Source of the DNA: Clostridia bacterium
GTDB taxonomy: Bacteria; Bacillota; Clostridia; Christensenellales; DTU072
Length of the DNA: 64,000 nucleotides
Direction: 5' to 3'
Assembly (NCBI GenBank): GCA_016297005.1
Contig: JAEDHK010000002.1
Location: 132,837-196,836 of the forward strand
Made by a program: the position numbers and the translations under genes. Positions within the stretch are counted from its first letter, which is position 1. Every line of letters begins with the position of its first letter. Shown in pieces: positions 2,226 through 15,875 of this stretch. The notes below the pieces were generated by a model, which was given only the letters and a program-made list of their open reading frames with translations, had not been told where the DNA came from and did not search any database.

Positions 2226-3406
2226 TTTTCGTAAGTAGCAAAGAGCGCTTTAAAGGCGGGCAAAGACCGGACGATCATGTCGTAAGAAACGCAATAAGAA
2301 ATGCGTACAAAACCGGGCGCGCCGAAAGTATCTCCGGGGACAAGGAGCAGGCCGAAGTTCTTGGCTCTGTCAGAAAAGGCGTTAGCGTCCGGCTCCGGCG
2401 TTTTCATCATCAGATAAAAGGCACCTTGCGGTTTAATACACTCGAACCCGATCTCCGTCAGCGACGAATACAGAAGTTTTCTGTTCTTGTCATACGCAGC
2501 CACGTCGGCGGGAGCGTCCACGCAATCAAGCAGGATCCGCTGAAAAAGGTGGGGCGCACAGACGTAGCCGAGAGCTCGACCGGCGCCGCATACGGCATAA
2601 TACAGTTCTTGCGCCTGCCGCGCTTTCGGACTGACGGCGATATAACCGATTCTTTCGCCGGGGAGAGACAACGACTTGCTGTAACTGTAACAGACCACGA
2701 CGTCGTCGTAATAATTCATCAGATACGGCACGAACACGCCGTCATACACGATTTCTCTATACGGCTCATCCGAAATAAGAAAGATCGGGTGCCCATACTC
2801 TTTTTCTTTGTCGCCCAAAAGTGCACAAAGAGCTTTGATTTCTTCTTCGGAATAGACTGCGCCGGACGGATTATTGGGGGAGTTGATAATAACGCCCTTG
2901 GTGTTTTCGTCGATCAATTTTGCGGCCGCCTGCAAATTCATTTTGCAGTCGTCTTTCATCGGAACCACGCGTAAAGCAGCTCCCGTGGCTTCGGTAAAAA
3001 CGGTATACTCGGGAAAGAACGGCGCAAAACAGAGGAAGTTGTCTCCATCCTCTTTCAATGCTTTCAGCGTAATGCAAAGAGCCGCCGCCGCGCCCACGGT
3101 CAGATAGATGAGATCGGGGCTCACGAGCACGTTATGGCACTTCTCGATATGAGCGGCAACGGCCTTTCTGACGTCCGGGTCGCCCTGTGCGGAAGAGTAG
3201 CCGTGCAAAACGGTGCTCTTGGGCATGTCGATCTGTTTCTGAATGGATTCTTTAACGATCGCAGGGGCAGGCACGCTGGGGTTGCCTAACGAAAAGTCGT
3301 ATACCTTATCGGCGCCTTCTTTGGCGGCGAGCTGTTTTCCGAACTCAAACAATTCCCGAATGACGGAGCGGTTGCTCCCCAAACGGTGCATTTTTTCATT
3401 GAACAT
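2222..3406 (-). CDS. PLP-dependent aminotransferase, class I/II (AspB/AlaT-like)
   Basis: 394 aa with the PLP-lysine motif SYSKSLSLPGERIGY and NPSGAVY. Overlaps the trmB start by 4 nt. Confidence 0.8.
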   Translation of the reverse strand: MFNEKMHRLGSNRSVIRELFEFGKQLAAKEGADKVYDFSLGNPSVPAPAIVKESIQKQIDMPKSTVLHGYSSAQGDPDVRKAVAAHIEKCHNVLVSPDLIYLTVGAAAALCITLKALKEDGDNFLCFAPFFPEYTVFTEATGAALRVVPMKDDCKMNLQAAAKLIDENTKGVIINSPNNPSGAVYSEEEIKALCALLGDKEKEYGHPIFLISDEPYREIVYDGVFVPYLMNYYDDVVVCYSYSKSLSLPGERIGYIAVSPKARQAQELYYAVCGAGRALGYVCAPHLFQRILLDCVDAPADVAAYDKNRKLLYSSLTEIGFECIKPQGAFYLMMKTPEPDANAFSDRAKNFGLLLVPGDTFGAPGFVRISYCVSYDMIVRSLPAFKALFATYEK

Positions 3407-3409
3407 GAT

Positions 3410-4546
3410 TTATTGTTTCTCCTTTTTCTCGGCGTCGGCCTTTTCTTTTAAGATCTTCGCGTACTCTTCGTCGTCGAAGGGCAAAGAAACAGACTCCTTA
3501 CGCCAGTTCGATAAGTAAATCCCATTGATCAGCGTCAGCGCGCAAAGGCCCTCTTCCCCCCGGGCTACCAGGAGGTCTCTGTTTCCGCTGTCGACAGCCT
3601 TCCCGAAGGCTTCGATTACGCGCCATTGCTGTCCGTAAATAAGGTCGACCGCTTTGCGGATCGGACCGTAGCCGTATCGATAGGTGCGCATGGGCGTCGA
3701 ACCGTACCCCCGGGTGGTCTCCGCGTTGACTTGCGGCTCCGACTTTTTAAGGATGGTATAGGTCATCTTCCAGCTGGTAATGACGATGGTACCCTTCGTA
3801 CCGACGATGGTAAAACGGTTTTCGCCGGGCAGTTCGTGCGTGGACGCGCAGAAATAGCAATCGAAGTCCTTATATCCGAACACGGCATACAGATCGTTTT
3901 CCGTGCTGATATTTCTTCCCACAGTGCGACAAGACGACGTTATCCTCTCCGGCATACCGAGCAACCATTGCACAAGATCGAGCTGATGCACGCATTGATT
4001 GATGAGCGTACCGCCGCCCTCTCCGGACCAACTTGCTCTCCAACCTCCCTGGTTATAATATGCCTGTGAACGGTACCAGTCCGTAATGACGTAGTTTGCG
4101 CGCTGTATCTTGCCGATCGCGCCGCTCTCTATCAATTCTTTCGCCTTACGGTACATCCGATTGGTACGTTGATTGAACATCATCCCGAAAAACACTTCCG
4201 GATGCGCCTTAGCCGTTTCAATGACCGACTTCGCTTCCAACGTGGTAACGGTCAGCGGTTTTTCTACCACGGTATGTAATCCCGCCGTAATACAATCTTT
4301 CGCGATCTGTCCGTGAAAATAGTGCGGAACGGCGATCATGACGGCCTTACATACGCCCGACTCAATCAAATCCTTATGATTATAAAATCCTTTGACGGAA
4401 GGATGCTTTTTGCAAAAATCATCCACCTTTTTCTTATCCACGTCGCAAACGGCGACCAGTCTGGATCCTTTCATTCTGCCGGCAGCCAGATTGCCGGCGT
4501 GTTTTCCACCCATTCTTCCGATGCCGATAACAGCAAAATCAGCCAT
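3410..4546 (-). CDS. Gfo/Idh/MocA family oxidoreductase
   Basis: N-terminal Rossmann segment FAVIGIGRMGGKHA, VVEKPL (EKP) motif, 378 aa. Confidence 0.75.
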   Translation of the reverse strand: MADFAVIGIGRMGGKHAGNLAAGRMKGSRLVAVCDVDKKKVDDFCKKHPSVKGFYNHKDLIESGVCKAVMIAVPHYFHGQIAKDCITAGLHTVVEKPLTVTTLEAKSVIETAKAHPEVFFGMMFNQRTNRMYRKAKELIESGAIGKIQRANYVITDWYRSQAYYNQGGWRASWSGEGGGTLINQCVHQLDLVQWLLGMPERITSSCRTVGRNISTENDLYAVFGYKDFDCYFCASTHELPGENRFTIVGTKGTIVITSWKMTYTILKKSEPQVNAETTRGYGSTPMRTYRYGYGPIRKAVDLIYGQQWRVIEAFGKAVDSGNRDLLVARGEEGLCALTLINGIYLSNWRKESVSLPFDDEEYAKILKEKADAEKKEKQ

Positions 4547-5386: not shown

Positions 5387-6298
5387 ATGAGAAAAGAAAG
5401 CACCGAATTGAACGTAAAGGCTCCCAAAGTCAGAACCGCCGTCCTGACGAGAAAAATCGGGAGCAGAATCAAAAACTTTTTTACCTATAATCCGCCCGGC
5501 AGAAATCCCCGCGTATGGGAACTGGACCTTCTGCGCGGAATTATGATGCTTGCCGTCACTCTCGATCACATCTTACTGTTCCTGTATGAGTGGCAATTCA
5601 TAAATTTCAATACCGAAATCGGTCAAAGAATAATGGATTTTGCTTATCTCTATCGTAACGGCTCTTTCCGGGACGCCATGCAACCGCTCTCATTGTTTTT
5701 GTTTTCTTTTCTTGCCGGTCTGAATTGTCGATTTACTCGAAGCAGTTTTCGTCGGGTGCTGAAATTCTGGATCTTTTGCGCCCTTTTCATGGGTGGGTTC
5801 GCCCTTATTAAGGTCATCTTTCCAAATATGCTCGCCGTTTATCTCATTTTTAATATCGTCACCGTTCTCGCCATATCTTTCACTGTCTGGTGGCTCTTGG
5901 ACCTCGTCAAATTACCCGCCTGGATACGGGCCTCGATCGGTACCGTCCTGATCGTCATCGGTATGGTATGCTACTACAAATATTTTGCTGAATCGGAAGA
6001 TTTTTACGTGCAAAACGAGTTTTTGGCGCTTATGGTCTATAACAGACACGGGTTTGAAATGTCCGCCAATAATTTTGAGCCCCTTCTTCCCCATCTCGGT
6101 TGGTTTTTGATCGGCGGCGTCATCGGTATGTTCGCTTATCCCGACAATAAAACCCACTGTAAACAGATCTATCCGCCCAAGCCGTTACGGCCCTTGCTCC
6201 TTATCGGAAAGCACTCGCTCTTCTTCTATCTTACCGGCCCCGTTATTATCCTCGCTCCGTTGTGGCTCGTCGTGTTGATCGTCGGTTTATTCCTATAA
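5387..6298 (+). CDS. multi-pass membrane protein, DUF1624 / heparan-glucosaminide N-acetyltransferase-like
   Basis: WELDLLRGIMMLAVTLDH resembles the DUF1624 N-terminal signature, and about 7 hydrophobic segments follow. Start is uncertain: TTG at 5351 or ATG at 5387, neither with a clear RBS. Confidence 0.45.
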   Translation: MRKESTELNVKAPKVRTAVLTRKIGSRIKNFFTYNPPGRNPRVWELDLLRGIMMLAVTLDHILLFLYEWQFINFNTEIGQRIMDFAYLYRNGSFRDAMQPLSLFLFSFLAGLNCRFTRSSFRRVLKFWIFCALFMGGFALIKVIFPNMLAVYLIFNIVTVLAISFTVWWLLDLVKLPAWIRASIGTVLIVIGMVCYYKYFAESEDFYVQNEFLALMVYNRHGFEMSANNFEPLLPHLGWFLIGGVIGMFAYPDNKTHCKQIYPPKPLRPLLLIGKHSLFFYLTGPVIILAPLWLVVLIVGLFL

Positions 6299-6323
6299 TC
6301 TCAAAATAATTAACGCATTAAAA

Positions 6324-6365
6324 CAAAAGCCCTCTCGCTTCGCTACGAAAGGGCTTTTGTTTTAT
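6324..6365. terminator. bidirectional rho-independent terminator between convergent genes
   Basis: AAAAGCCCTcTCG...CGAaAGGGCTTTT hairpin flanked by A- and T-runs. Confidence 0.65.
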
Positions 6366-6372
6366 AATAAGT

Positions 6373-7731
6373 CTATCCCAAGATTGAGACGGCAAGACCG
6401 CAATATAGGATCAAAGAAAGAGCGTCGACAATAGTCGTAATGAACGGGCTGGCAACGACGGCCGGATCGAGCTTGACCTTTTTAGCAAGCATCGGCAGCA
6501 TGCATCCGACCAACTTAGCGATTACGACGGTACACATTAAAGCAAGAGACACGACCAAGCAGGTAAAGGGCGTATAGTCCTTATACCCGAAAAGCAGATT
6601 GTCTATGAGCATCAATTTACCAAAGCACGCCACCGCCAAAGAAACGGCCAAAAGGAGCGAGGCTCTGATTTCTTTCCATAACACGCGGAACGCGTCTTTT
6701 GTAGTAATCTCGTTCAGCGCAAGAGAACGAATAACGGTGACCGACGCCTGAGAGCCGGCGTTACCGCCCGTGTCCATAATCATCGGCACGCAGGCAAAAA
6801 GCACCGAACTGATCAGGGATAATTTACCTTCGAACGTATTCAGAATAAGACCGGTAAACGTGGCCGAAACCATAAGAACAAGCAACCACGGAATGCGGTT
6901 TCGCCAGATGGCGAAGACGCTCGTCTTCAAATAGGGCTTATCGCTCGGCTTAACGGCGGCCATCTTAGCGATATCTTCGGTGTTCTCTTCCTGCAAGACG
7001 TCCATAGCGTCGTCGATGGTAATGATACCGACCAATCTTACTTCGCTGTCCACAACGGGGATTGCCAGAAAAGAATACTTATCGAACATCTGCGCGGCCG
7101 TTTCTTTATCGGCATGCGTTTCAATATAAATAACGTGATCCTCCATGATGTCTTCTACTTTCGTTTCATACGAATGGAGCAAAAGATCTTTGACCGTAAC
7201 AAGTCCCAGCAAGTGTCGACAATCGTCGATAACGTAACAAGTATAAACCGTCTCTTTATCGATACCGTTTTTTCTGATCTGCGCGAAGCTCTCCTCGACC
7301 GTCATCGTCGGATAGAGATAGACGTACTCGGTCGTCATGATTGAGCCGGCGCTGTCCTCAGGATATTGTAAAATAGTATTGATGGCCGATCTCGTCTCTG
7401 CGTCTGCCTGTTGCAAAATACGCCTGACTATGCTTGCCGGCATCTCTTCGATAAGATCAACGGCGTCGTCGACGTACAGTTCGTCCATAATCTGCTTTAA
7501 TTCTTTATCGGAAAAGCGCCTGATCAGGATTTCTTGCAGGTCGCTGTCCATCTCGACGAACGTTTCCGCCGCAAGATCTTTCGGGAGCAGGCGAAAAACG
7601 ACGGGAAGATCGCTCTCGTCCACCTCGGACAGAATATGCGCAACGTCCGCTCCGTTCATTTCGGAAAGAATCGGTTTCAGTTCTTTAAAATTCCTTTGTT
7701 CAAGAAGAGAAAAAATAATTTGCTCATCCAT
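6373..7731 (-). CDS. mgtE: magnesium transporter MgtE
   Basis: N-terminal MgtE domain, tandem CBS region and a C-terminal 5-TM domain with DTGGNAGSQ. Start trimmed to the ATG at 7731 (MDEQII...), preceded by GGAGG 6 nt upstream. Confidence 0.9.
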   Translation of the reverse strand: MDEQIIFSLLEQRNFKELKPILSEMNGADVAHILSEVDESDLPVVFRLLPKDLAAETFVEMDSDLQEILIRRFSDKELKQIMDELYVDDAVDLIEEMPASIVRRILQQADAETRSAINTILQYPEDSAGSIMTTEYVYLYPTMTVEESFAQIRKNGIDKETVYTCYVIDDCRHLLGLVTVKDLLLHSYETKVEDIMEDHVIYIETHADKETAAQMFDKYSFLAIPVVDSEVRLVGIITIDDAMDVLQEENTEDIAKMAAVKPSDKPYLKTSVFAIWRNRIPWLLVLMVSATFTGLILNTFEGKLSLISSVLFACVPMIMDTGGNAGSQASVTVIRSLALNEITTKDAFRVLWKEIRASLLLAVSLAVACFGKLMLIDNLLFGYKDYTPFTCLVVSLALMCTVVIAKLVGCMLPMLAKKVKLDPAVVASPFITTIVDALSLILYCGLAVSILG

Positions 7732-7744
7732 GATAACCTCCGTT

Positions 7745-7915
7745 ACAGTTGAAGTCGTAAATCGGGGCACAGGGGCAAAAGGTTATTTATTAAAAAAGGC
7801 TTTTATCGTACGGCACAAACAAATGTCCCCCATAACGGAACGTCGCCCAAATAACCGCTCTCTGTGCCCGTGCTACTTGCGGGTTCCATCTGCATGCCTC
7901 CTTAAATTTTTTTCA
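7745..7915 (-). promoter_or_regulatory. structured 5' leader of mgtE, possible M-box (ykoK-type) Mg2+ riboswitch
   Basis: About 170-nt GC-richer leader in an AT-rich spacer. It contains TTAAGGAGGC, GGGCGACGTTCCGTTATGGGGG (cf. M-box GACG..AAUGGG) and a long-range GGCACA/TGTGCC pairing. Only partial agreement with the consensus as I remember it. Confidence 0.4.
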
Positions 7916-8019
7916 CTAACATTATACTCATCGTCATTTTTTCTGTCAACCTGCAAGAAGAAAACTTTTCCCTCTCCGGACTCATTTTTTCTTTTCTCTC
8001 AAAACAATAAAAATTTCGC

Positions 8020-8059: not shown

Positions 8060-8135
8060 GGGATATTAACTCAGCTGGTAGAGTGTCTTCTTGACGTGGA
8101 GAAAGTCAGCGGTTCGAGTCCGTTATATCCCACCA
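8060..8135 (+). tRNA. tRNA-Val (anticodon GAC), CCA encoded
   Basis: Hand-folded cloverleaf. Acceptor GGGATAT/ATATCCC, D arm ACTC..GAGT, anticodon stem TCTTC/GGAGA with loop TTGACGT, T arm AGCGG-TTCGAGT-CCGTT, 3' ACCA. Confidence 0.9.
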
Positions 8136-9208: not shown

Positions 9209-9964
9209 TTAGCTATTGCAGATAGTAAGCATTTCTTCTTTGCTGACGTTATATCGATAAAAATTTAATGATGACGGACTTTTCCCTTTATAATTCGCCC
9301 ATTCTTTTTCGGCGTCGTTCTCGCTCCCTTCATAGTACAAAACGGAATACTTCGGCAATGCTCCGATATAATTTGAAAAATGTAACTTTGGTATCCAAAA
9401 CTTAATACCATAGTTTTCCTTATCTATTATTTTAGATATATCCGGATCGATATATATTTGTCCGTTTTCATATCTTTTTATGGTTGGGATAAAAGAGCTT
9501 CCGGCAGCATGAAAGGCACCTGGTGCTATATCCTTAAGCGAGCGAGGCAAAACAACACACCGCAGATTTACGCAAAATTCAAAAGCGTCGCCGCCGATTG
9601 TTTCTACCTTATCCGGTAGAACGATATGGCGCAAGTTATGACACATAGCAAACGCGCCTCCGCCTATTTCCGTCAGACTATTCGGTAAGAAAATTTCGGT
9701 AAGATTTTCACATCGACAAAAGGCGAAGTCTTCAATCGTCTTCGCCCCTTCTGCAATAAAGACCTTTTCGACGTATTTGAATTTTTCAAACGCGCTTGTT
9801 GCCACGCCGACGACAGGCGAACCCAAATAGGACTCGGGAATGTGTACGTAACTATCGTTAAACACCTCTACGTCGGGACCGGTAACGTAAAAACCGTCTT
9901 CCCGTCGTCTCATTTTCAATTGTCCCATCTTGTCGTGGTTCTTATATTCTTCTTTCCCTGCCAC
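9209..9964 (-). CDS. BspA-type leucine-rich-repeat protein without signal peptide (predicted cytoplasmic)
   Basis: About 23-aa LRR_5-like repeats, e.g. IEDFAFCRCENLTEIFLPNSLTEIGGGAFAMCHNLRHIVLPDKVETIGGDAFEFCVNLRCVVLP. No hydrophobic N-terminus. The GTG start at 9964 abuts the stop of the upstream small ORF; an alternative ATG lies at 9928. Confidence 0.7.
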   Translation of the reverse strand: MAGKEEYKNHDKMGQLKMRRREDGFYVTGPDVEVFNDSYVHIPESYLGSPVVGVATSAFEKFKYVEKVFIAEGAKTIEDFAFCRCENLTEIFLPNSLTEIGGGAFAMCHNLRHIVLPDKVETIGGDAFEFCVNLRCVVLPRSLKDIAPGAFHAAGSSFIPTIKRYENGQIYIDPDISKIIDKENYGIKFWIPKLHFSNYIGALPKYSVLYYEGSENDAEKEWANYKGKSPSSLNFYRYNVSKEEMLTICNS

Positions 9965-10126
9965 TTATTGGGGGACAATATTGTAAAACTTAAACTGTGA
10001 ATTTCTCAGTTTATTTTGTGCCCAAGCTTCTGCATAATTACGATTGGCTGTAATTGTTTCGGTAAAAGCAGGCGCACCACTACGAAGCGCTGATTCTGTA
10101 AGATAGTAACATATTTTCCATTTCAT
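9965..10126 (-). CDS. small hypothetical protein (53 aa; below the ORF-track cutoff)
   Basis: Hand-translated as MKWKICYYLTESALRSGAPAFTETITANRNYAEAWAQNKLRNSQFKFYNIVPQ*. GAGGT sits 9 nt upstream. Its stop is directly adjacent to the GTG of the LRR gene. Confidence 0.45.
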   Translation of the reverse strand: MKWKICYYLTESALRSGAPAFTETITANRNYAEAWAQNKLRNSQFKFYNIVPQ

Positions 10127-10147
10127 CGTCATCATACCTCGCTTTTA

Positions 10148-10333
10148 TTATTTCTTTTCCTGCCACTTAGGACAAGCGGGATTCATAGCGGATTGATCTC
10201 CATTTCCTCTGCCGGATATTTTACATACATGCCACCCGTTCTCGTATTCAACAATACCTCCTTTTAATGTGGCTTTTCCGCCAAAGTGTTCACATGTGCA
10301 ACAATACTTGCTGTTTTTTGAAATCGTACTCAT
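10148..10333 (-). CDS. small Cys-rich hypothetical protein (61 aa)
   Basis: Strong RBS AAAGGAG 8 nt upstream. Cys pattern CCxC...C...C (C11, C12, C14, C37, C54). No family recognised. Confidence 0.55.
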   Translation of the reverse strand: MSTISKNSKYCCTCEHFGGKATLKGGIVEYENGWHVCKISGRGNGDQSAMNPACPKWQEKK

Positions 10334-10401
10334 TTTTTAGTCTCCTTTAATCATTTTTACGGAATAGTTTTCGTGTATATTAAAAGGATATCAGAGTTGT
10401 T

Positions 10402-10417
10402 ATCCCATATTTGGGAT
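10402..10417. promoter_or_regulatory. inverted repeat ATCCCA-TATT-TGGGAT overlapping a TATAAT box (candidate operator)
   Basis: Perfect 6+6 palindrome. The minus-strand TATAAT at 10421-10416 overlaps it, upstream of the 10333 operon. Confidence 0.35.
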
Positions 10418-10444
10418 TATACCGATATTTCCAATGTATTATGT

Positions 10445-11056
10445 CTATACATATTTGGTCTTTTCAATATCCCAATTATAAATCTCGATATCATATTTCC
10501 TATATACTTCTTCAATTATTTCTTTTGCACTGTTATAATTTCTCTTTTTTTTCTCTATTATTTTTCTATCTTCATTCTTCAACATTCTGCAAATACATAT
10601 TTTATTTAATATTGGTATTACCGTTTCATAAGTGACTTCAGATAATTCACATAGCTCATCAATAATCATATTCAAAGGTATAATATGTTCTTCATGAAAA
10701 ACGTCTCTATATACAAAACGTGGATGTTCTTTTGTATGTATTTCGCCATTCTTTTTAGAAGAATTCCCAATATAACGATCTAAAATTACATCACTATCAA
10801 TATCACATTCAACTATTTCTCTGTAATGATAATGGTCTATCGGTTTTGAAGTGATTTTTTCCCATGTTTGTTTTGCCGCTACTGTTATTAAATATCTATC
10901 ATTAATTTGATAATTTCGTAAAATTTGTCCTAATAAATATCTACATTTCCATATTCTGAAACTGCTCTGTTCATTCGGCTCAATAACGTCATTCTTTTTT
11001 TGACATGCCTTGATAAAAGTAATAATAATATCTAATACAACATTGTTTTCTTCCAT
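10445..11056 (-). CDS. hypothetical protein with HNH/DUF1524-like His-Me finger motif
   Basis: Start trimmed to the ATG at 11056 (RBS AAAGGAG, MEENNVVLD...). FHEEHIIP (aa 120-127) followed by RMLKNEDRKI resembles the (D/E)EHIxP...N signature of DUF1524/GmrSD-type HNH nucleases. Overlaps the WYL gene end by 15 nt. Confidence 0.45.
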   Translation of the reverse strand: MEENNVVLDIIITFIKACQKKNDVIEPNEQSSFRIWKCRYLLGQILRNYQINDRYLITVAAKQTWEKITSKPIDHYHYREIVECDIDSDVILDRYIGNSSKKNGEIHTKEHPRFVYRDVFHEEHIIPLNMIIDELCELSEVTYETVIPILNKICICRMLKNEDRKIIEKKKRNYNSAKEIIEEVYRKYDIEIYNWDIEKTKYV

Positions 11057-11069
11057 TTTTTCTTCTCCT

Positions 11070-12050
11070 TTATTGATTATATTTTTCCGTTGCCCAACAT
11101 AAGTTTTCTTTGACTTTTTCACGCAATGTGGTCGGCGTAAGTATTTCCACGGCATTGAGATACTGCATTGCCCAAAATTCCATCGCGTGCAAACTTGTTT
11201 TTACAGAGATAATGAATTTATCCTTTTCGGGTTGAATGTCGATATTTTTACCGAACCAATCGACAACCTGATCAATTGCCCACGGCTCGGCGCGAAAGGT
11301 GACAGGTTGCGGCTCGTCGGCGAACATATAGGGCATTTGACAGGAAAATCGGTTATAATCTATTCCGTTTTCAAACCCTTCGATGGTACGAATAGGCACT
11401 TGCGCTATCTCTTTTTTCTCTATCTTCGTGATACGGTCGAGACGGTAGTATTTCATCTGCTTGTAGTAGTCGTTATACGCCATAAGATAGTACCGCTGAT
11501 TATGTAGGATCATTTGATAGGGACTCGCCGTCACCCGCGAAGATCGGTGCAGTTTTTTATCCGCCCCGTACTTATTGTATTCAAAATAGACTTGTTTACC
11601 CTCGGTGATGGCTTCATCTACCACTTCCATAGTATAAAATAAGTCCTTATTGTCCGTCTTGTCCCAGTCGCCTATGCGATAAACGTACTTAACGTGCGTC
11701 TTAAAATATTTATTGGATAAACCGCATAATTTGTCTATTAAATCGGCGGAATGTTTGGTGCCGATATGCTTTCCGGCAAGAATACCGTCAATGAGCATAC
11801 GAAGCTCTACGTCCTCAAACGTCCTTTCGGCAAGATAGGAACCTTTTTTCGTCGTCACGATATCGTAACCGGCTTCGTTTAACAAAGAAATATTTCGTCC
11901 GATCGCTTTGCGCTCTATATTCAATTCGTATTCACTTTGCAGCTTCTTTACGATTTCATCGTGCGTTAAAGGGTGATCGATGTCCGTTTCCTTATTTAGT
12001 ATTTGATAAATACGTATTAAAGCAAGTTTTTTCGGTTCGGAGGTATACAT
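11070..12050 (-). CDS. WYL-domain transcriptional regulator (wHTH-WYL-WCX; YafY/BrxR/CapW-like)
   Basis: N-terminal wHTH (LALIRIYQILNKE...IERKAIGRNISLLNEAGYDI). Central WYL-like core QRYYLMAYNDYYKQMKYYRLDRI. C-terminal extension. 326 aa. Confidence 0.8.
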   Translation of the reverse strand: MYTSEPKKLALIRIYQILNKETDIDHPLTHDEIVKKLQSEYELNIERKAIGRNISLLNEAGYDIVTTKKGSYLAERTFEDVELRMLIDGILAGKHIGTKHSADLIDKLCGLSNKYFKTHVKYVYRIGDWDKTDNKDLFYTMEVVDEAITEGKQVYFEYNKYGADKKLHRSSRVTASPYQMILHNQRYYLMAYNDYYKQMKYYRLDRITKIEKKEIAQVPIRTIEGFENGIDYNRFSCQMPYMFADEPQPVTFRAEPWAIDQVVDWFGKNIDIQPEKDKFIISVKTSLHAMEFWAMQYLNAVEILTPTTLREKVKENLCWATEKYNQ

Positions 12051-12059
12051 AACGCAATA

Positions 12060-13091
12060 TTATTCCCATTCTTTGCTTCGAAGCAGTTTGGCGATTTCTT
12101 CAGAGGTAGGTTTTGTCTTATCTGTAGTTTCAAATAATTCCGTTAAATTAAAAATTCGTGAGCCCATGGGCGCTCGTGATGTGTTTTTTTTGAAGTCGGT
12201 TTCATAAAAATTGTCAACAAAAAAATAGCGGTGTTTAATATATCGAATATCCCAACCTCTTTCGAGAGCATCATCCATTGCGCGTTGAATAGTTTCCTTT
12301 CTTTTTTCAGTTAATTCCCCGCTTTCAACTTGATATTCGATCTCTCCATGGGAATTTTTTACAGCGGTTATACGGGCGATTATTTTTCCTATAGCGCGTA
12401 TGCTTTTATTAGCATAAAGTCCCAAATAATCGTGTGGACGAAATCCCCTTTCTGCGTTATCATAATAGCAGTTTTCTTTACAATTGAAGTCAATTGTTTT
12501 GCTTGCTAACTGCATTCGCAAATACTTCCAGGCGTCATAATTTGGTATCAAACCGTCATGGCAGAGAAAGTTTTTATAATCATCGAGAATTGCTTGCATT
12601 TCCATGTCTCTATCATCGATCATTGATCCAATTGAATTAGCAAGCGCTTCAAAAGTAGTTGCTTTAAATATGATTGGATGCTGATCATGCTCTTTATTGT
12701 ATTCTTCCAATTTTATTTGGAAATCCTTTACTTTTTCATCTGCAATCAATTCTGTTGACAGCGCCAAAACGACCCTGTATTTTTCATCAGAAAACGATGA
12801 TAAATGTCTTGTTAATTGATCGGTATAGAACCAGTCCGTTATTTTAGTTTCAATAACAATCTTAAAACTTTCCTGAGTAATCGTTGCGTCAGGAATACTA
12901 TTTTTACTTCCACTTTTTTCTTGTAATTTAAAATCTATTTCCGGTTCAAACGACTCTGGAAGATACTCTGTTTTCAAGAATTGATAAAATTTTCCACTTG
13001 AATATTGATAAAAACGGGATAGGAGTAACATCGTATTTGCGGTTGCCACGTTCTCTTTTTGATGATATCTTTGGAAATAATGAATATTCAT
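12060..13091 (-). CDS. hypothetical protein with N-terminal PD-(D/E)xK nuclease-like motif
   Basis: KENVATANTMLLL helix, then IPD68ATI...FKIVIE81TK83, which fits the PD...(D/E)xK pattern. The C-terminal ~200 aa are unassigned. RBS GGAG upstream. Confidence 0.45.
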   Translation of the reverse strand: MNIHYFQRYHQKENVATANTMLLLSRFYQYSSGKFYQFLKTEYLPESFEPEIDFKLQEKSGSKNSIPDATITQESFKIVIETKITDWFYTDQLTRHLSSFSDEKYRVVLALSTELIADEKVKDFQIKLEEYNKEHDQHPIIFKATTFEALANSIGSMIDDRDMEMQAILDDYKNFLCHDGLIPNYDAWKYLRMQLASKTIDFNCKENCYYDNAERGFRPHDYLGLYANKSIRAIGKIIARITAVKNSHGEIEYQVESGELTEKRKETIQRAMDDALERGWDIRYIKHRYFFVDNFYETDFKKNTSRAPMGSRIFNLTELFETTDKTKPTSEEIAKLLRSKEWE

Positions 13092-13173
13092 TTTTAAAAT
13101 CTCCTTCTTTTTTTAATATACTGGTCTTATTATACCAAAAATGTCGCAACAATTCAAGATGTATTGTACCGAA

Positions 13174-13195
13174 TTTGGGATAGAGCTTCCCATAT
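13174..13195. promoter_or_regulatory. inverted repeat TTTGGGAT-N6-TCCCATAT in the divergent promoter region (candidate operator)
   Basis: It has the same half-sites as the 10402 palindrome and overlaps a TATACT box at 13193-13198, upstream of the 13220 gene. Confidence 0.3.
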
Positions 13196-13219: not shown

Positions 13220-14872
13220 ATGACAAATACAGTACTATTTGATGAAAAGAACGCCGAAGAGATTTTTGAAAACCTTATTTCAACCGAAATAAAACAAAAA
13301 TATCCTAATATAACCGAAGAAATAGAAAAGCGGATCGAATACGAAAAGTCCGAAGTAAAGCGACTAGGATTTTTTCCTTATTTTTTATTTGTGCGAAAGC
13401 TTTGGGGAATTATCGAAAATGTTGATCCGTGTGCCTACGCGGACGGCGTGCAAAGCGGGTGTATTCTCAATTATCTGTTGGGTATCACCGATATCGATCC
13501 CATAGAAAACGGACTCTATTTCGAGAGTTTTATTAACGATCGTTATTATAAAAAAGATTTTCCGCATTACTTTTTTAACGTGCGCGAATCAATGTTGAAC
13601 GCGATCTGTAAAGCAATTCAAAAGGAAGTAGAGAAGAGCGGTATAGGCGTCAGAACGGAAAACCATTTCAGAAGTCATACAGTCGAACTGTATTTTGATG
13701 GAGAAAGCAGCAAGCAAGGATTCTTTATTACGCTTGGTTTGGACGAATATGCCGATCTTATTCATCTTTGCGAGGAGAAAACGGGCGTTGATTGTCCGGC
13801 ATATACCGATTATACCGATGAAAAAGTGTGGGAGTTGTTTCAAAAGGAACAATTTGAAAATCCGTTTATCGAGTATGCCAAAGAGCATCGAAAAAGCCAT
13901 CCGCATACTTTTATGCAACTTGCGGACGCTATTTCAGGTGGCTTTTTTATTTACGATTATTACAGTGACGATCAGAGTGCTTTTCTTCAATCATCATATG
14001 CGAAAGATGGATCGCCCCATTATAAAGAAGACTGGATCCGATTGGTTTCGGCGACACTCGGTATCGATAGCGCAAAAGCTCACTATTATAATCGTGAACT
14101 ATGTAGGTATCAATTATTCGGGAAGTATCTATCGAAAGATAAAGCCCTGAAAGAATTCATCGCCGACGGAGAAAAAGCCGGGTGTGAGAAATCGACTTTG
14201 CAAAAGATAGTCGATGACGTTAATCCGTACACGGTCGCATGGAAGGCAATCGTCGATACCATCGCAACGCAAATATACAAAATAGCCTATTTCCAAGCCA
14301 ATTTTCATGATGAATATGTAGCTGCGGTAAAAACTACCTATCAAGAAAAACTGAAATCGTGCCTGGATAACGGTGTCGTTATCTTTGATCTGGACACAGA
14401 CGGATTGGAACCGGTCGAGATAAAAACCGGCGACGAAGAGGTCCATTTTATTATGAAAATCGAAGCGCTCCGTATGAGAAATAATACGGTTGTTGATCGA
14501 CTTGAAACGTACGTTTACCGCGGATTGGATATACCGCCAAAACTTGCTGAAGTATTGAGGCTCAATTACGACGACCTGTGTAAAGCGATCAAGACTGACG
14601 AAGTAATGAAAAGGCTATCCGTCTTTCTCGGCAAGTTGCCCGTTATAACGCACAACGTACCTTTCGTAGAAAAATTTTTGGATTTTTATGATCAAAATCG
14701 TTTGCTCAAACGATTATATTGTGAGGACGTCATCACGTACTTCAACAAGATCATCCAACCGGACAAACCGATAAGAACGATGCGCAGTATGCGGAAAACG
14801 CTACGTATCGAGCAAACCCTCACCGACGCGGAAGCTATGCGAGAAATGGTCTGCATGCTGATAGATTTATGA
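13220..14872 (+). CDS. truncated, apparently inactivated DNA polymerase III alpha (DnaE)-like palm/fingers fused to a degenerate DnaQ-like DEDD exonuclease domain
   Basis: RLGFFPYFLFV, NYLLGITDIDPIENGLYFESFIN, FIADGEKAGC..KIVDDV and YFQANFHDEYVAAV are collinear with DnaE motifs. The catalytic PDFDVDF reads KDFPHYF. C-terminal motifs are VVIFDLDTDGL, ITHNVPFVEKFL and TLTDAEAM. RBS GGAGG. Confidence 0.6.
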   Translation: MTNTVLFDEKNAEEIFENLISTEIKQKYPNITEEIEKRIEYEKSEVKRLGFFPYFLFVRKLWGIIENVDPCAYADGVQSGCILNYLLGITDIDPIENGLYFESFINDRYYKKDFPHYFFNVRESMLNAICKAIQKEVEKSGIGVRTENHFRSHTVELYFDGESSKQGFFITLGLDEYADLIHLCEEKTGVDCPAYTDYTDEKVWELFQKEQFENPFIEYAKEHRKSHPHTFMQLADAISGGFFIYDYYSDDQSAFLQSSYAKDGSPHYKEDWIRLVSATLGIDSAKAHYYNRELCRYQLFGKYLSKDKALKEFIADGEKAGCEKSTLQKIVDDVNPYTVAWKAIVDTIATQIYKIAYFQANFHDEYVAAVKTTYQEKLKSCLDNGVVIFDLDTDGLEPVEIKTGDEEVHFIMKIEALRMRNNTVVDRLETYVYRGLDIPPKLAEVLRLNYDDLCKAIKTDEVMKRLSVFLGKLPVITHNVPFVEKFLDFYDQNRLLKRLYCEDVITYFNKIIQPDKPIRTMRSMRKTLRIEQTLTDAEAMREMVCMLIDL

Positions 14873-15104: not shown

Positions 15105-15875
15105 ATGTGCTTAGATGATAAAAAAAACTATTTAGACAAAATGCCACAATTATTAAAGGAATGGCAAGCTTCTGCGGAAAAGGATAATATTTATAAAAAT
15201 CAAGGCAATCCCTGTGCAAACATTTTTATTTCCGATGGCATCGCACATCCCGACACCTGGTTTGCACAAGAAATCCGACCTTTGTTTGTTCTTAAAGAAG
15301 CGTATGATAAAAGTGGTGAACAAAAACCTTGGGATGAAGTAAAATGGTTTTTAACGACAAAAGAAGAAAACGGCGATGAAAGCGGAGGGAAAACCGGAAA
15401 AATTAGAGTTCAGACTTGGAAAAACATATGTCAGTGGTCCTCTTATATATATGAGGGGAACTACGATTGCGATACAGTATGGGAAAATAAAAACCTCGGA
15501 AAAATTGCCCTTATCAATATAAAAAAATATGGCGGTTGCGAGCGGTCCTCGTCTAAAGATTTGCAAAAACATGCGGAAAAATATTCTAAATATATTTATG
15601 AACAAATCAGACTTATAAAACCGACAATTATAATTTGCGGATATACCGGATGGTTGTTGGATATTGTTTGGGAAAAAGCAAGTAATAATAAACAGGCAAT
15701 AAGAAAGAATTGTTGCGGTGGACACGTGTACGACGTTCCCGAAATAAATGCAAAACTGATCGATTTCTGGCATCCCTCGGCACGAATCAAAGGCTTAAAG
15801 GGAGCTTTTATTGCGGATGTTGATATCGCTTTAGAAAGAACCGATACGAATGAAACAAATGACGTATGTAAATAA
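15105..15875 (+). CDS. hypothetical protein, possible divergent uracil-DNA-glycosylase-superfamily fold
   Basis: Strong RBS AAGGAGG. Order of elements: PLFVLKEAYD (cf. motif 1 GEAPG/GQDPY), ALINIKKYGG, KPTIIICGYTG, FWHPSAR (cf. motif 2 HPSP). Motif-level only. Confidence 0.35.
   Translation: MCLDDKKNYLDKMPQLLKEWQASAEKDNIYKNQGNPCANIFISDGIAHPDTWFAQEIRPLFVLKEAYDKSGEQKPWDEVKWFLTTKEENGDESGGKTGKIRVQTWKNICQWSSYIYEGNYDCDTVWENKNLGKIALINIKKYGGCERSSSKDLQKHAEKYSKYIYEQIRLIKPTIIICGYTGWLLDIVWEKASNNKQAIRKNCCGGHVYDVPEINAKLIDFWHPSARIKGLKGAFIADVDIALERTDTNETNDVCK

Follow-up and report, generated by a model that had tools for sequence, protein, structure and literature searches.

In the window, a stretch of 64,000 nucleotides (nt) from a Clostridia bacterium (contig JAEDHK010000002.1, positions 132,837 to 196,836), three adjacent minus-strand genes encode a predicted PD-(D/E)xK nuclease (gene 1), a WYL-domain regulator (gene 2) and a protein without annotated relatives (gene 3). 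On balance, we judge this locus to be a horizontally mobile, self-regulated WYL cassette with nuclease-type effectors, most likely serving in defense. This judgment draws on a promoter element that is sharply conserved before orthologues of the regulator, on the recurrent pairing of the regulator with gene 3 and on the restriction-type cargo of sister loci. The principal features are as follows.

Gene 1: positions 12060-13091, minus strand, open reading frame of 343 amino acids (aa).
Gene 2: positions 11070-12050, minus strand, open reading frame of 326 aa.
Gene 3: positions 10445-11056, minus strand, open reading frame of 203 aa with its ATG at 11056.
Signature promoter: positions 13129-13157, minus strand, with the -35 box TTGAAT at 13152-13157, TTGCGACA at 13142-13149 and the extended -10 box TGGTATAAT at 13129-13137.

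The genes are co-oriented and tightly packed head to tail, as a first-pass annotation of this DNA had it, and the gap of 9 nt that it gave between genes 1 and 2 was re-measured as 9 nt. Its 15-nt overlap of genes 2 and 3 proved to be a 13-nt gap, running from the gene 2 stop at 11070 to the ATG at 11056; the sole version of gene 3 that overlaps gene 2, a 236-aa reading from 11155 (86 nt of overlap), was judged implausible. GGAG-type ribosome-binding sites precede genes 1 and 3, with AGGAG before the gene 3 ATG, and a promoter scan found no internal promoter within the three-gene run. We take genes 1 and 3 to be real genes because each has many homologues.

Upstream of gene 1 stands a promoter composed of TTGAAT, a 17-nt spacer and TGgTATAAT (13157-13129), which scored 10 of 12 matches plus the TG extension in the promoter scan. 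Its consensus before WYL orthologues is TTGAc-tta-TTGCGACA-a.tT-TGGTATAAT, or in general form TTGAnn-N3-TTGCGACA-N4-TGGTATAAT, and exact or near-exact copies of TTGCGACA-N4-TGGTATAAT were found at 18 distinct sites. At the 16 sites outside the window lineage, the promoter is found in the interval that separates the WYL gene from its upstream neighbor, ~25-50 nt ahead of the WYL start. At the other two, namely the window (counted as one site with the identical contig L013) and locus L001, it precedes gene 1, which places gene 1 within the WYL-led transcription unit. Conservation reaches at least 90% in the spacer element and is absent from its flanks, though the WYL proteins themselves are only 52-72% identical. 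A shuffle control gave ~2 matches per megabase at up to 3 mismatches, and exact matches are not expected by chance; TTGCGACA occurs once in the locus. Judged from this conservation, the element is a putative operator of the WYL regulator.

The regulator had been described as a winged helix-turn-helix, WYL and WCX protein, and the domain searches agree: WYL stands above the Pfam threshold (E 8e-13; PADLOC WYL, E 2e-25), and WCX (E 1.3e-3) and HTH_11 (E 5e-3) are sub-threshold Pfam matches in the window protein, the WCX match being stronger in the orthologue of locus L089 (E 8e-6). We surveyed 77 metagenomic loci whose WYL orthologues are 52-72% identical to gene 2. Directly after the WYL gene in such sister loci come GmrSD_N/DUF7834 proteins, which match the PADLOC models HEC-06/Orf5/SspE (E 3e-29), or proteins weakly matching PDC-S26; directly before it come IetA-like AAA+ proteins (E 3e-18) or DUF2779/Cas4-like nucleases. 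HEC-06 has been validated by experiment as a nuclease that acts against phage T4 (PMC12366544). The defense-island setting suggested by the first-pass annotation is thus found among the orthologues. PADLOC (2023 database version) matched none of the window's own neighbors to a known defense system, and when run on the operon itself it likewise returned no known system, with generic WYL models only for gene 2 and nothing for gene 3.

The WYL gene is directly followed by gene 3 in six of the ten distinct contexts in which the gene 3 family occurs (the window, L174, L175, L178/L179, L180 and L200/L201), with gaps of -4 to +17 nt; in the five contexts other than the window, the paired WYL gene encodes 327 aa and is 62% identical to gene 2. 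Gene 1 is a rarer companion. A member of its family occurs in one of the 77 WYL loci (L125; 33% identity, hhalign probability 100%), in the order gene 1, one gene, WYL, exonuclease. Proximity of WYL and gene 1 outside the window lineage is seen in L089 and L125, which are independent and differ in gene order.

The closest relative, L001, has a gene 1 that is 88% identical and runs from the divergent DnaE-fragment gene through gene 1 and the WYL gene directly to an LRR gene. It lacks what corresponds to window positions 9932-11053, which is exactly gene 3 together with two micro-protein genes.

p61: positions 10148-10333, minus strand, Cys-rich micro-protein of 61 aa with the pattern CCxCxH...C...C.
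p53: positions 9965-10126, minus strand, micro-protein of 53 aa, a called gene on the identical contig L013.

Homologues of p61 are 68-87% identical to it; they follow the cargo gene in L100, L108, L110, L115 and L178/L179, and one lies beside a gene-1 homologue, after it, in L084, where there is no WYL gene. Homologues of p53 lie downstream of the cargo in L098, L100, L102, L108, L115, L143, L174 and L178/L179. p61 shows stronger conservation than the WYL protein of those loci (~57-63%), whereas p53 (43-60%) does not. Since sister cassettes also have these two behind their cargo gene, the unit reaches downstream to them: the promoter comes first, then (in this lineage) gene 1, then the WYL gene and a variable cargo gene, and last p53 with p61.

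In the mechanism that we envision, a single strong sigma-70-type promoter would drive gene 1, the WYL gene, gene 3 and probably p61 and p53. The WYL protein, presumed to be a dimer, would bind the element that overlaps the spacer and the -10 box and so repress its own operon; we infer repression because the promoter is near consensus and carries the element in its spacer. A signal bound by the WYL domain would then alter DNA binding and raise expression, and the most plausible signal would be single-stranded DNA (ssDNA) from phage infection or DNA damage, as for CapW, DriD and PafBC. Gene 1 would act as a PD-(D/E)xK endonuclease whose C-terminal domain may read the substrate, gene 3 would be an effector in the cargo slot directly after WYL, and the likely role of the whole would be defense against phages or other mobile DNA.

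Among solved structures, a profile built from 28 sequences of the subfamily picks out the WYL and WCX domains of Caulobacter DriD (8tp8, 7u02; E 3e-5) and PafC of the mycobacterial PafBC complex (E 0.011), and the WYL/WCX region of gene 2 aligns to DriD across residues 175-320; as a single query against PDB sequences, gene 2 retrieved the PafBC-complex chain 7p5x alone (E 0.47). The PDB chains of BrxR and CapW were matched neither by gene 2 alone (E up to 1) nor by the 28-sequence profile (E up to 10). The residues with which DriD contacts ssDNA, Y192, W206 and R207 (PMC10853764), align with Y188, Y202 and R203 of gene 2; R203 is invariant across the WYL subfamily, Y202 is invariant and Y188 is identical in a three-sequence alignment. 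The conserved promoter element contains CGAC, with GTAT 7 nt later overlapping the -10 box, and the DriD target is CGAC-N7-GTCG (PMC10853764). DriD, too, binds its own promoter.

These likenesses favor an alternative in which the locus is a DNA-damage response module without an anti-phage role: the WYL protein would sense ssDNA arising from damage and switch on adjacent repair or tolerance genes, or death nucleases of the BapE kind, its targets being gene 1, gene 3 and perhaps the DnaE-fragment/exonuclease gene and a gene for a uracil-DNA glycosylase (UDG)-like protein. The company kept by these families points the same way, with UDG-like (36 loci, and L051), AlkD-like, DnaB_C and RNase_T exonuclease neighbors. 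We nevertheless consider this alternative unlikely. The AT-rich island and the patchy distribution fit it poorly, and the sister cargoes are restriction-type (HEC-06/GmrSD-like, IetA-like and PDC-S26-like). Activator-dependent promoters usually have poor -35 boxes, whereas here the element sits in a near-consensus, strong promoter, which suggests repression. Moreover, a CapW-type repressor binds ssDNA and then lets go of its operator (PMC11662680); in CapW, ssDNA sensing serves defense, so likeness to DriD does not discriminate between the two readings. Gene 2 also departs from DriD and PafBC in belonging to a mobile cassette within an island, in having adjacent nuclease-type cargo rather than a chromosomal regulon as its proposed targets, and in the degenerate second half-site, GTAT, of its element.

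BrxR-family regulators co-localize with diverse defense systems, and 97% of BrxR homologues are proteobacterial (PMC9122601), homology having been defined by Picton et al. as BLASTP E < 1e-5 against BrxR. Gene 2 shares with BrxR and CapW the three-domain architecture and similar size (~300 aa for the class), orthologues that co-localize with many different defense-type genes, a putative operator overlapping its own promoter, and ssDNA as a plausible ligand. It differs from them in its Firmicute origin, in lacking a detectable match to the solved chains, in having QRYYLM in the place of the RWHVR motif, in its position in the middle of the operon and in having one CGAC half-site in the promoter spacer instead of a long inverted repeat.

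We next turn to the proposed effectors. The restriction-endonuclease-like character claimed for gene 1 finds support at the level of its family. The motifs KENVATANTMLLL, IPD68 and IVIE81TK83 are all present, and an alignment of 116 family members, each sharing 28-54% identity with the window protein, leaves no columns invariant except D68, E81 and K83; E13 (the first-helix Glu), Q92 and H96 are near-invariant in it. PDDEXK_4 is the sole Pfam family that recurs among these members (8 of 116, weak, best E 9.6e-5), and Mrr_cat is matched in one of the 116. An AlphaFold2 model (predicted local distance difference test, pLDDT, 73) has the order alpha-beta-beta-beta-alpha-beta around the motif, with D68 just before strand 69-72 and E81 and K83 within strand 76-83; its confidence is low (pLDDT <50) over residues 51-72, the region that holds D68. 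The invariant triad, the strand order and the recurrence of PDDEXK_4 together support gene 1 as a predicted PD-(D/E)xK nuclease, a classification that we accept as far as motif and secondary structure go.

Gene 1 thus resembles PD-(D/E)xK enzymes of the PDDEXK_4 (PF14281)/Mrr-like kind in its D...ExK triad, its conserved first-helix Glu and its core-fold order. It differs from them in that the window protein itself matches no model and adds a conserved C-terminal domain. Searches of gene 1 against Pfam, NCBIfam and PHROGs gave no match, and PADLOC gave only weak ones (PDC-M15A, E 1e-3; pVip-kinase, E 2e-3). No usable match came from PDB sequence searches with genes 1 and 3, whether as single proteins or as profiles built from 13, 32 and 116 sequences; short matches such as those to I-OnuI (E 0.026) and HP0721 were dismissed as spurious. 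The C-terminal domain (~residues 195-343, ~150 aa) is beta-rich, conserved and outside known families. Foldseek matched this half weakly to the ASCH/PUA-like structures 2kku, 2dp9 and 1t62 (probability 0.2-0.4), and no Pfam modified-base reader domain was found in any of the 116 members.

The gene 1 family is very large: grouping at 90% identity yields 1261 clusters, and grouping at 50% leaves 1067 representatives, of which 366 fall below E 1e-30 and are nearly all ~335 aa long. Its hosts include Firmicutes, Actinobacteria, Fibrobacter, spirochaetes and a Ruminobacter; relatives are carried on 17 IMG/VR contigs, and those on plasmids are labeled hypothetical only. Across 79 genomic gene-1 loci, the neighbors differ greatly from locus to locus and are in many cases restriction-like (SWI2/SNF2, ResIII, PDDEXK_4, methylases, HsdR_N, STAND NTPases and recombinases), and some relatives adjoin type I restriction-modification genes. 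The sole locus among the 79 with a WYL gene is L089, in which the order is WYL, then gene 1.

Elsewhere the family has other regular companions. In 24 of the 79 loci (for example L014, L017, L019-L024, L052-L056, L061 and L093), a gene 1 homologue ends another tight operon, which runs from DUF6508 (~163 aa) through a 322-335-aa protein to gene 1. The middle protein has no Pfam match, and in 7 loci a related 548-aa PDDEXK_4 protein stands in its place; we regard this operon as a separate candidate system that shares the gene 1 effector. Whether gene 1 is a paralogue of its commonest upstream partner, the 326-aa protein or the 548-aa PDDEXK_4 protein, was also considered, and the idea was not supported (hhalign probability of at most 1.4%). 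In the commonest gut lineage (L002-L007, gene 1 62% identical), a 259-aa protein begins 16 nt after gene 1 and is followed by a 309-aa protein; both (for example 7031-7810 and 8227-9156 in L002) have weak HNH_3/HNH_5 matches, and the surroundings in L002-L007 comprise DUF2326, HTH_26 and a type I restriction-modification system with a PIN_12 gene.

Gene 3 presents a different picture. Its motif FHEEHIIP is present at residues 120-127, but the HNH or DUF1524 nuclease read from it finds no echo in the family: of 113 members searched, not one has a match to a Pfam nuclease model (HNH and DUF1524 at E up to 0.1). The family comprises 136 unannotated proteins, nearly all ~200 aa long, with a few fragments and a few variants of up to 332 aa. 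Y40, L42, Q44, R47, F120, H124, C156, K160, E162 and R172 are invariant, H121, E123 and P127 are near-invariant, and the Asn positions after the motif vary. Gene 3 had no match in Pfam, NCBIfam, PHROGs or PADLOC or in the PDB by sequence or profile, and no copy of it was found in IMG/VR viral contigs or plasmids. Its AlphaFold2 model (pLDDT 85.8; predicted template modeling score 0.77) places strand 120-124, two inserted helices, strand 155-159 and helix 160-165 in succession. In Foldseek searches the model matched nothing in the PDB, His-Me structures included, and in BFVD it gave only weak matches to uncharacterized phage proteins.

DUF1524 itself was rejected, as hhalign gave 0.05-0.14% against the GmrSD-like DUF1524 C-terminus (a shallow template profile of 6 sequences); the whole-length GmrSD-like proteins of sister cassettes were also negative. 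The HEC-06/GmrSD (DUF262-DUF1524) type IV enzymes occupy the same slot after WYL in sister cassettes, and the gene 3 pattern (F)HxEHIIP...C-R-M-L-K-x-E loosely resembles their (D/E)HxxP...NLxxL...N. Gene 3 is unlike them in having no profile or fold kinship, no DUF262 and no conserved motif Asn. A degenerate His-Me site is possible but unsupported. Because the same slot holds HEC-06/GmrSD-like modification-dependent nucleases or PDC-S26-like proteins in sister cassettes, we infer by analogy that gene 3 is a second effector.

Two further observations concern the surroundings of gene 3. In L009 (6001-6588), a solitary homologue lies between ftsW and murA in the dcw cluster, an odd site for an accessory gene. 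In four contexts, the WYL/gene 3 pair is accompanied, on either side, by a DnaB_C-only protein (229-275 aa), which is a RecA-like ATPase lacking the N-terminal part of the helicase.

L174, positions 3268-3957: DnaB_C-only protein.
L175, positions 5697-6509: DnaB_C-only protein.
L178, positions 6128-6955: DnaB_C-only protein.
L180, positions 3268-3957: DnaB_C-only protein.

Several observations weigh against a self-regulated defense cassette. The closest solved relatives of the regulator are DNA-damage activators, DriD and PafC, and not the defense repressors BrxR and CapW. The dyad symmetry of the promoter element is weak, with one good CGAC half-site, and the promoter could be conserved by inheritance with the cassette and not as an operator. 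Some neighbors are repair- or replication-like (UDG-like, DnaE fragment with exonuclease, DnaB_C and AlkD-like). Neither gene 1 nor gene 3 is convincingly matched by PADLOC models, and neither model has a significant fold match in the PDB. The three genes had been proposed as one module, and as an obligate unit they do not hold together: in hidden Markov model searches, the WYL gene was absent from 78 of the 79 genomic gene-1 loci and gene 3 from all 79. Gene 3 occurs without WYL in four of its ten contexts, one of them within a cell-division gene cluster. Gene 3, p61 and p53 are dispensable for gene 1 and WYL, because L001 has the latter two without them. As to the co-occurrence of homologues, the pairing of WYL with gene 3 recurs, but genes 1 and 3 are never found together outside the window lineage.

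The locus could instead be a toxin-antitoxin-like or addiction module, in which the WYL protein would serve as antidote or repressor and regulate its own expression, gene 3, gene 1 or both would be toxic nucleases, and the function would be to stabilize the island or to provide abortive infection. The WYL/gene 3 pair is indeed compact and translationally coupled (-4 to +17 nt), different genomes carry it at unrelated housekeeping sites, and its promoter looks autoregulated. The solitary copies of gene 3 (4/10) and the gene 1 homologues without WYL (78/79) are hard to square with a constitutive toxin in need of an antidote, however, and one regulator with many unrelated cargoes behaves more like a general regulator, so that we rate this explanation as improbable. 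Still less credible is a fortuitous juxtaposition of three unrelated island genes with a WYL protein that regulates elsewhere or itself alone: the gene 1 and gene 3 families live mostly apart, and L001 lacks gene 3, but the WYL signature promoter stands before gene 1, only 9-nt and 13-nt gaps follow downstream, and the adjacency of WYL to gene 3 is repeated in 5 further contexts and that to gene 1 in 2, where the gene orders differ.

A bolder version of the defense-cassette reading, which we advance tentatively and hold to be possible rather than probable, is that the locus represents a modular WYL-cassette platform in gut Firmicutes. Such a platform would combine a fixed promoter/operator (TTGAc-N3-TTGCGACA-N4-TGGTATAAT) with a DriD-like, ssDNA-sensing WYL protein and with p53 and p61, which would frame an exchangeable effector slot. 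Genes 1 and 3 would then be two unrecognized families of defense effectors, gene 1 being a PD-(D/E)xK nuclease with a new C-terminal domain and gene 3 a protein of new fold that bears an H/E/H...C/K/E cluster.

WYL regulators that gate defense islands are already known in Proteobacteria from BrxR and CapW (PMC9122601). What is new here is the same logic in gut Clostridia-type bacteria, with a Firmicute regulator subfamily closer to DriD, a sharply conserved promoter element that is directly testable, an exchangeable single-slot layout with two conserved micro-proteins, and two unannotated candidate effector families. If the defense reading is confirmed, the families of gene 1 (1067 clusters at 50%) and gene 3 (136) would become testable effector candidates, and the frame of promoter, WYL, p53 and p61 would serve as a search handle whose slot occupants are candidate defense genes. 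Genes linked to BrxR and genes embedded in Hma have reportedly been mined for defense candidates in a similar way. Should the DNA-damage alternative be true, the locus would be the first described case in Firmicutes of a mobile cassette with a DriD-like circuit that responds to ssDNA.

The remaining features concern the island in which the cassette lies and its divergently transcribed neighbors.

tRNA-Val (GAC): positions 8060-8135, plus strand, at the left edge of the AT-rich island, where GC starts dropping.
Inverted repeat TGGGA-N7-TCCCA: positions 13176-13192, plus strand, inside the 128-bp divergent intergenic region.
Divergent DnaE-fragment/exonuclease gene: positions 13220-14872, plus strand, 550 aa (Pfam and NCBIfam).
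UDG-superfamily-like protein: positions 15105-15875, plus strand, 256 aa, with a weak NCBIfam match to type-4 UDG.

The AT-rich context noted earlier is borne out by a GC content of 0.36-0.40 across ~9-17 kb of the window as against 0.47-0.53 in the flanks. The tRNA-Val gene may be the integration site of the island; no att-like direct repeat of its end was found within 12 kb. An HsdR remnant placed 3.5 kb away was not recovered, as no HsdR-family domain is on record among the called genes of the identical contig, a check that a short uncalled pseudogene fragment would escape; the genes on the other side of the locus are LRR_5 and metallophosphoesterase genes by Pfam.

The divergent gene had been called a dead polymerase, and its product does join a DNA polymerase III alpha fragment, which covers ~95 residues of a 260-position model, to an RNase_T exonuclease domain of the DEDDh type. 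The first exonuclease motif is FDLDTDGL, with DLD and not DxE. The gene may share a regulatory region with the operon; it is kept in synteny with gene 1 and WYL in L001, and another RNase_T fusion comes after the WYL gene in L125. The gene that follows it in L001 has been swapped for one encoding an unrelated 248-aa protein, with no similarity between that replacement and the 256-aa UDG-like protein of the window.

Homologues of the UDG-like protein, 23-29% identical to it and with weak Pfam UDG matches, adjoin a WYL orthologue in convergent orientation in 36 redundant loci of one human-gut lineage (L129-L170). In L051, a UDG-like gene (7315-7968) immediately precedes a gene-1 homologue, and an AlkD-like gene for DNA-alkylation repair stands ~1.6 kb further upstream. 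Finally, the inverted repeat TGGGA-N7-TCCCA was rejected as a general WYL operator, being absent near other WYL genes; it overlaps a possible promoter spacer of the DnaE-fragment gene, and in L001 its stems are retained and its loop is altered.

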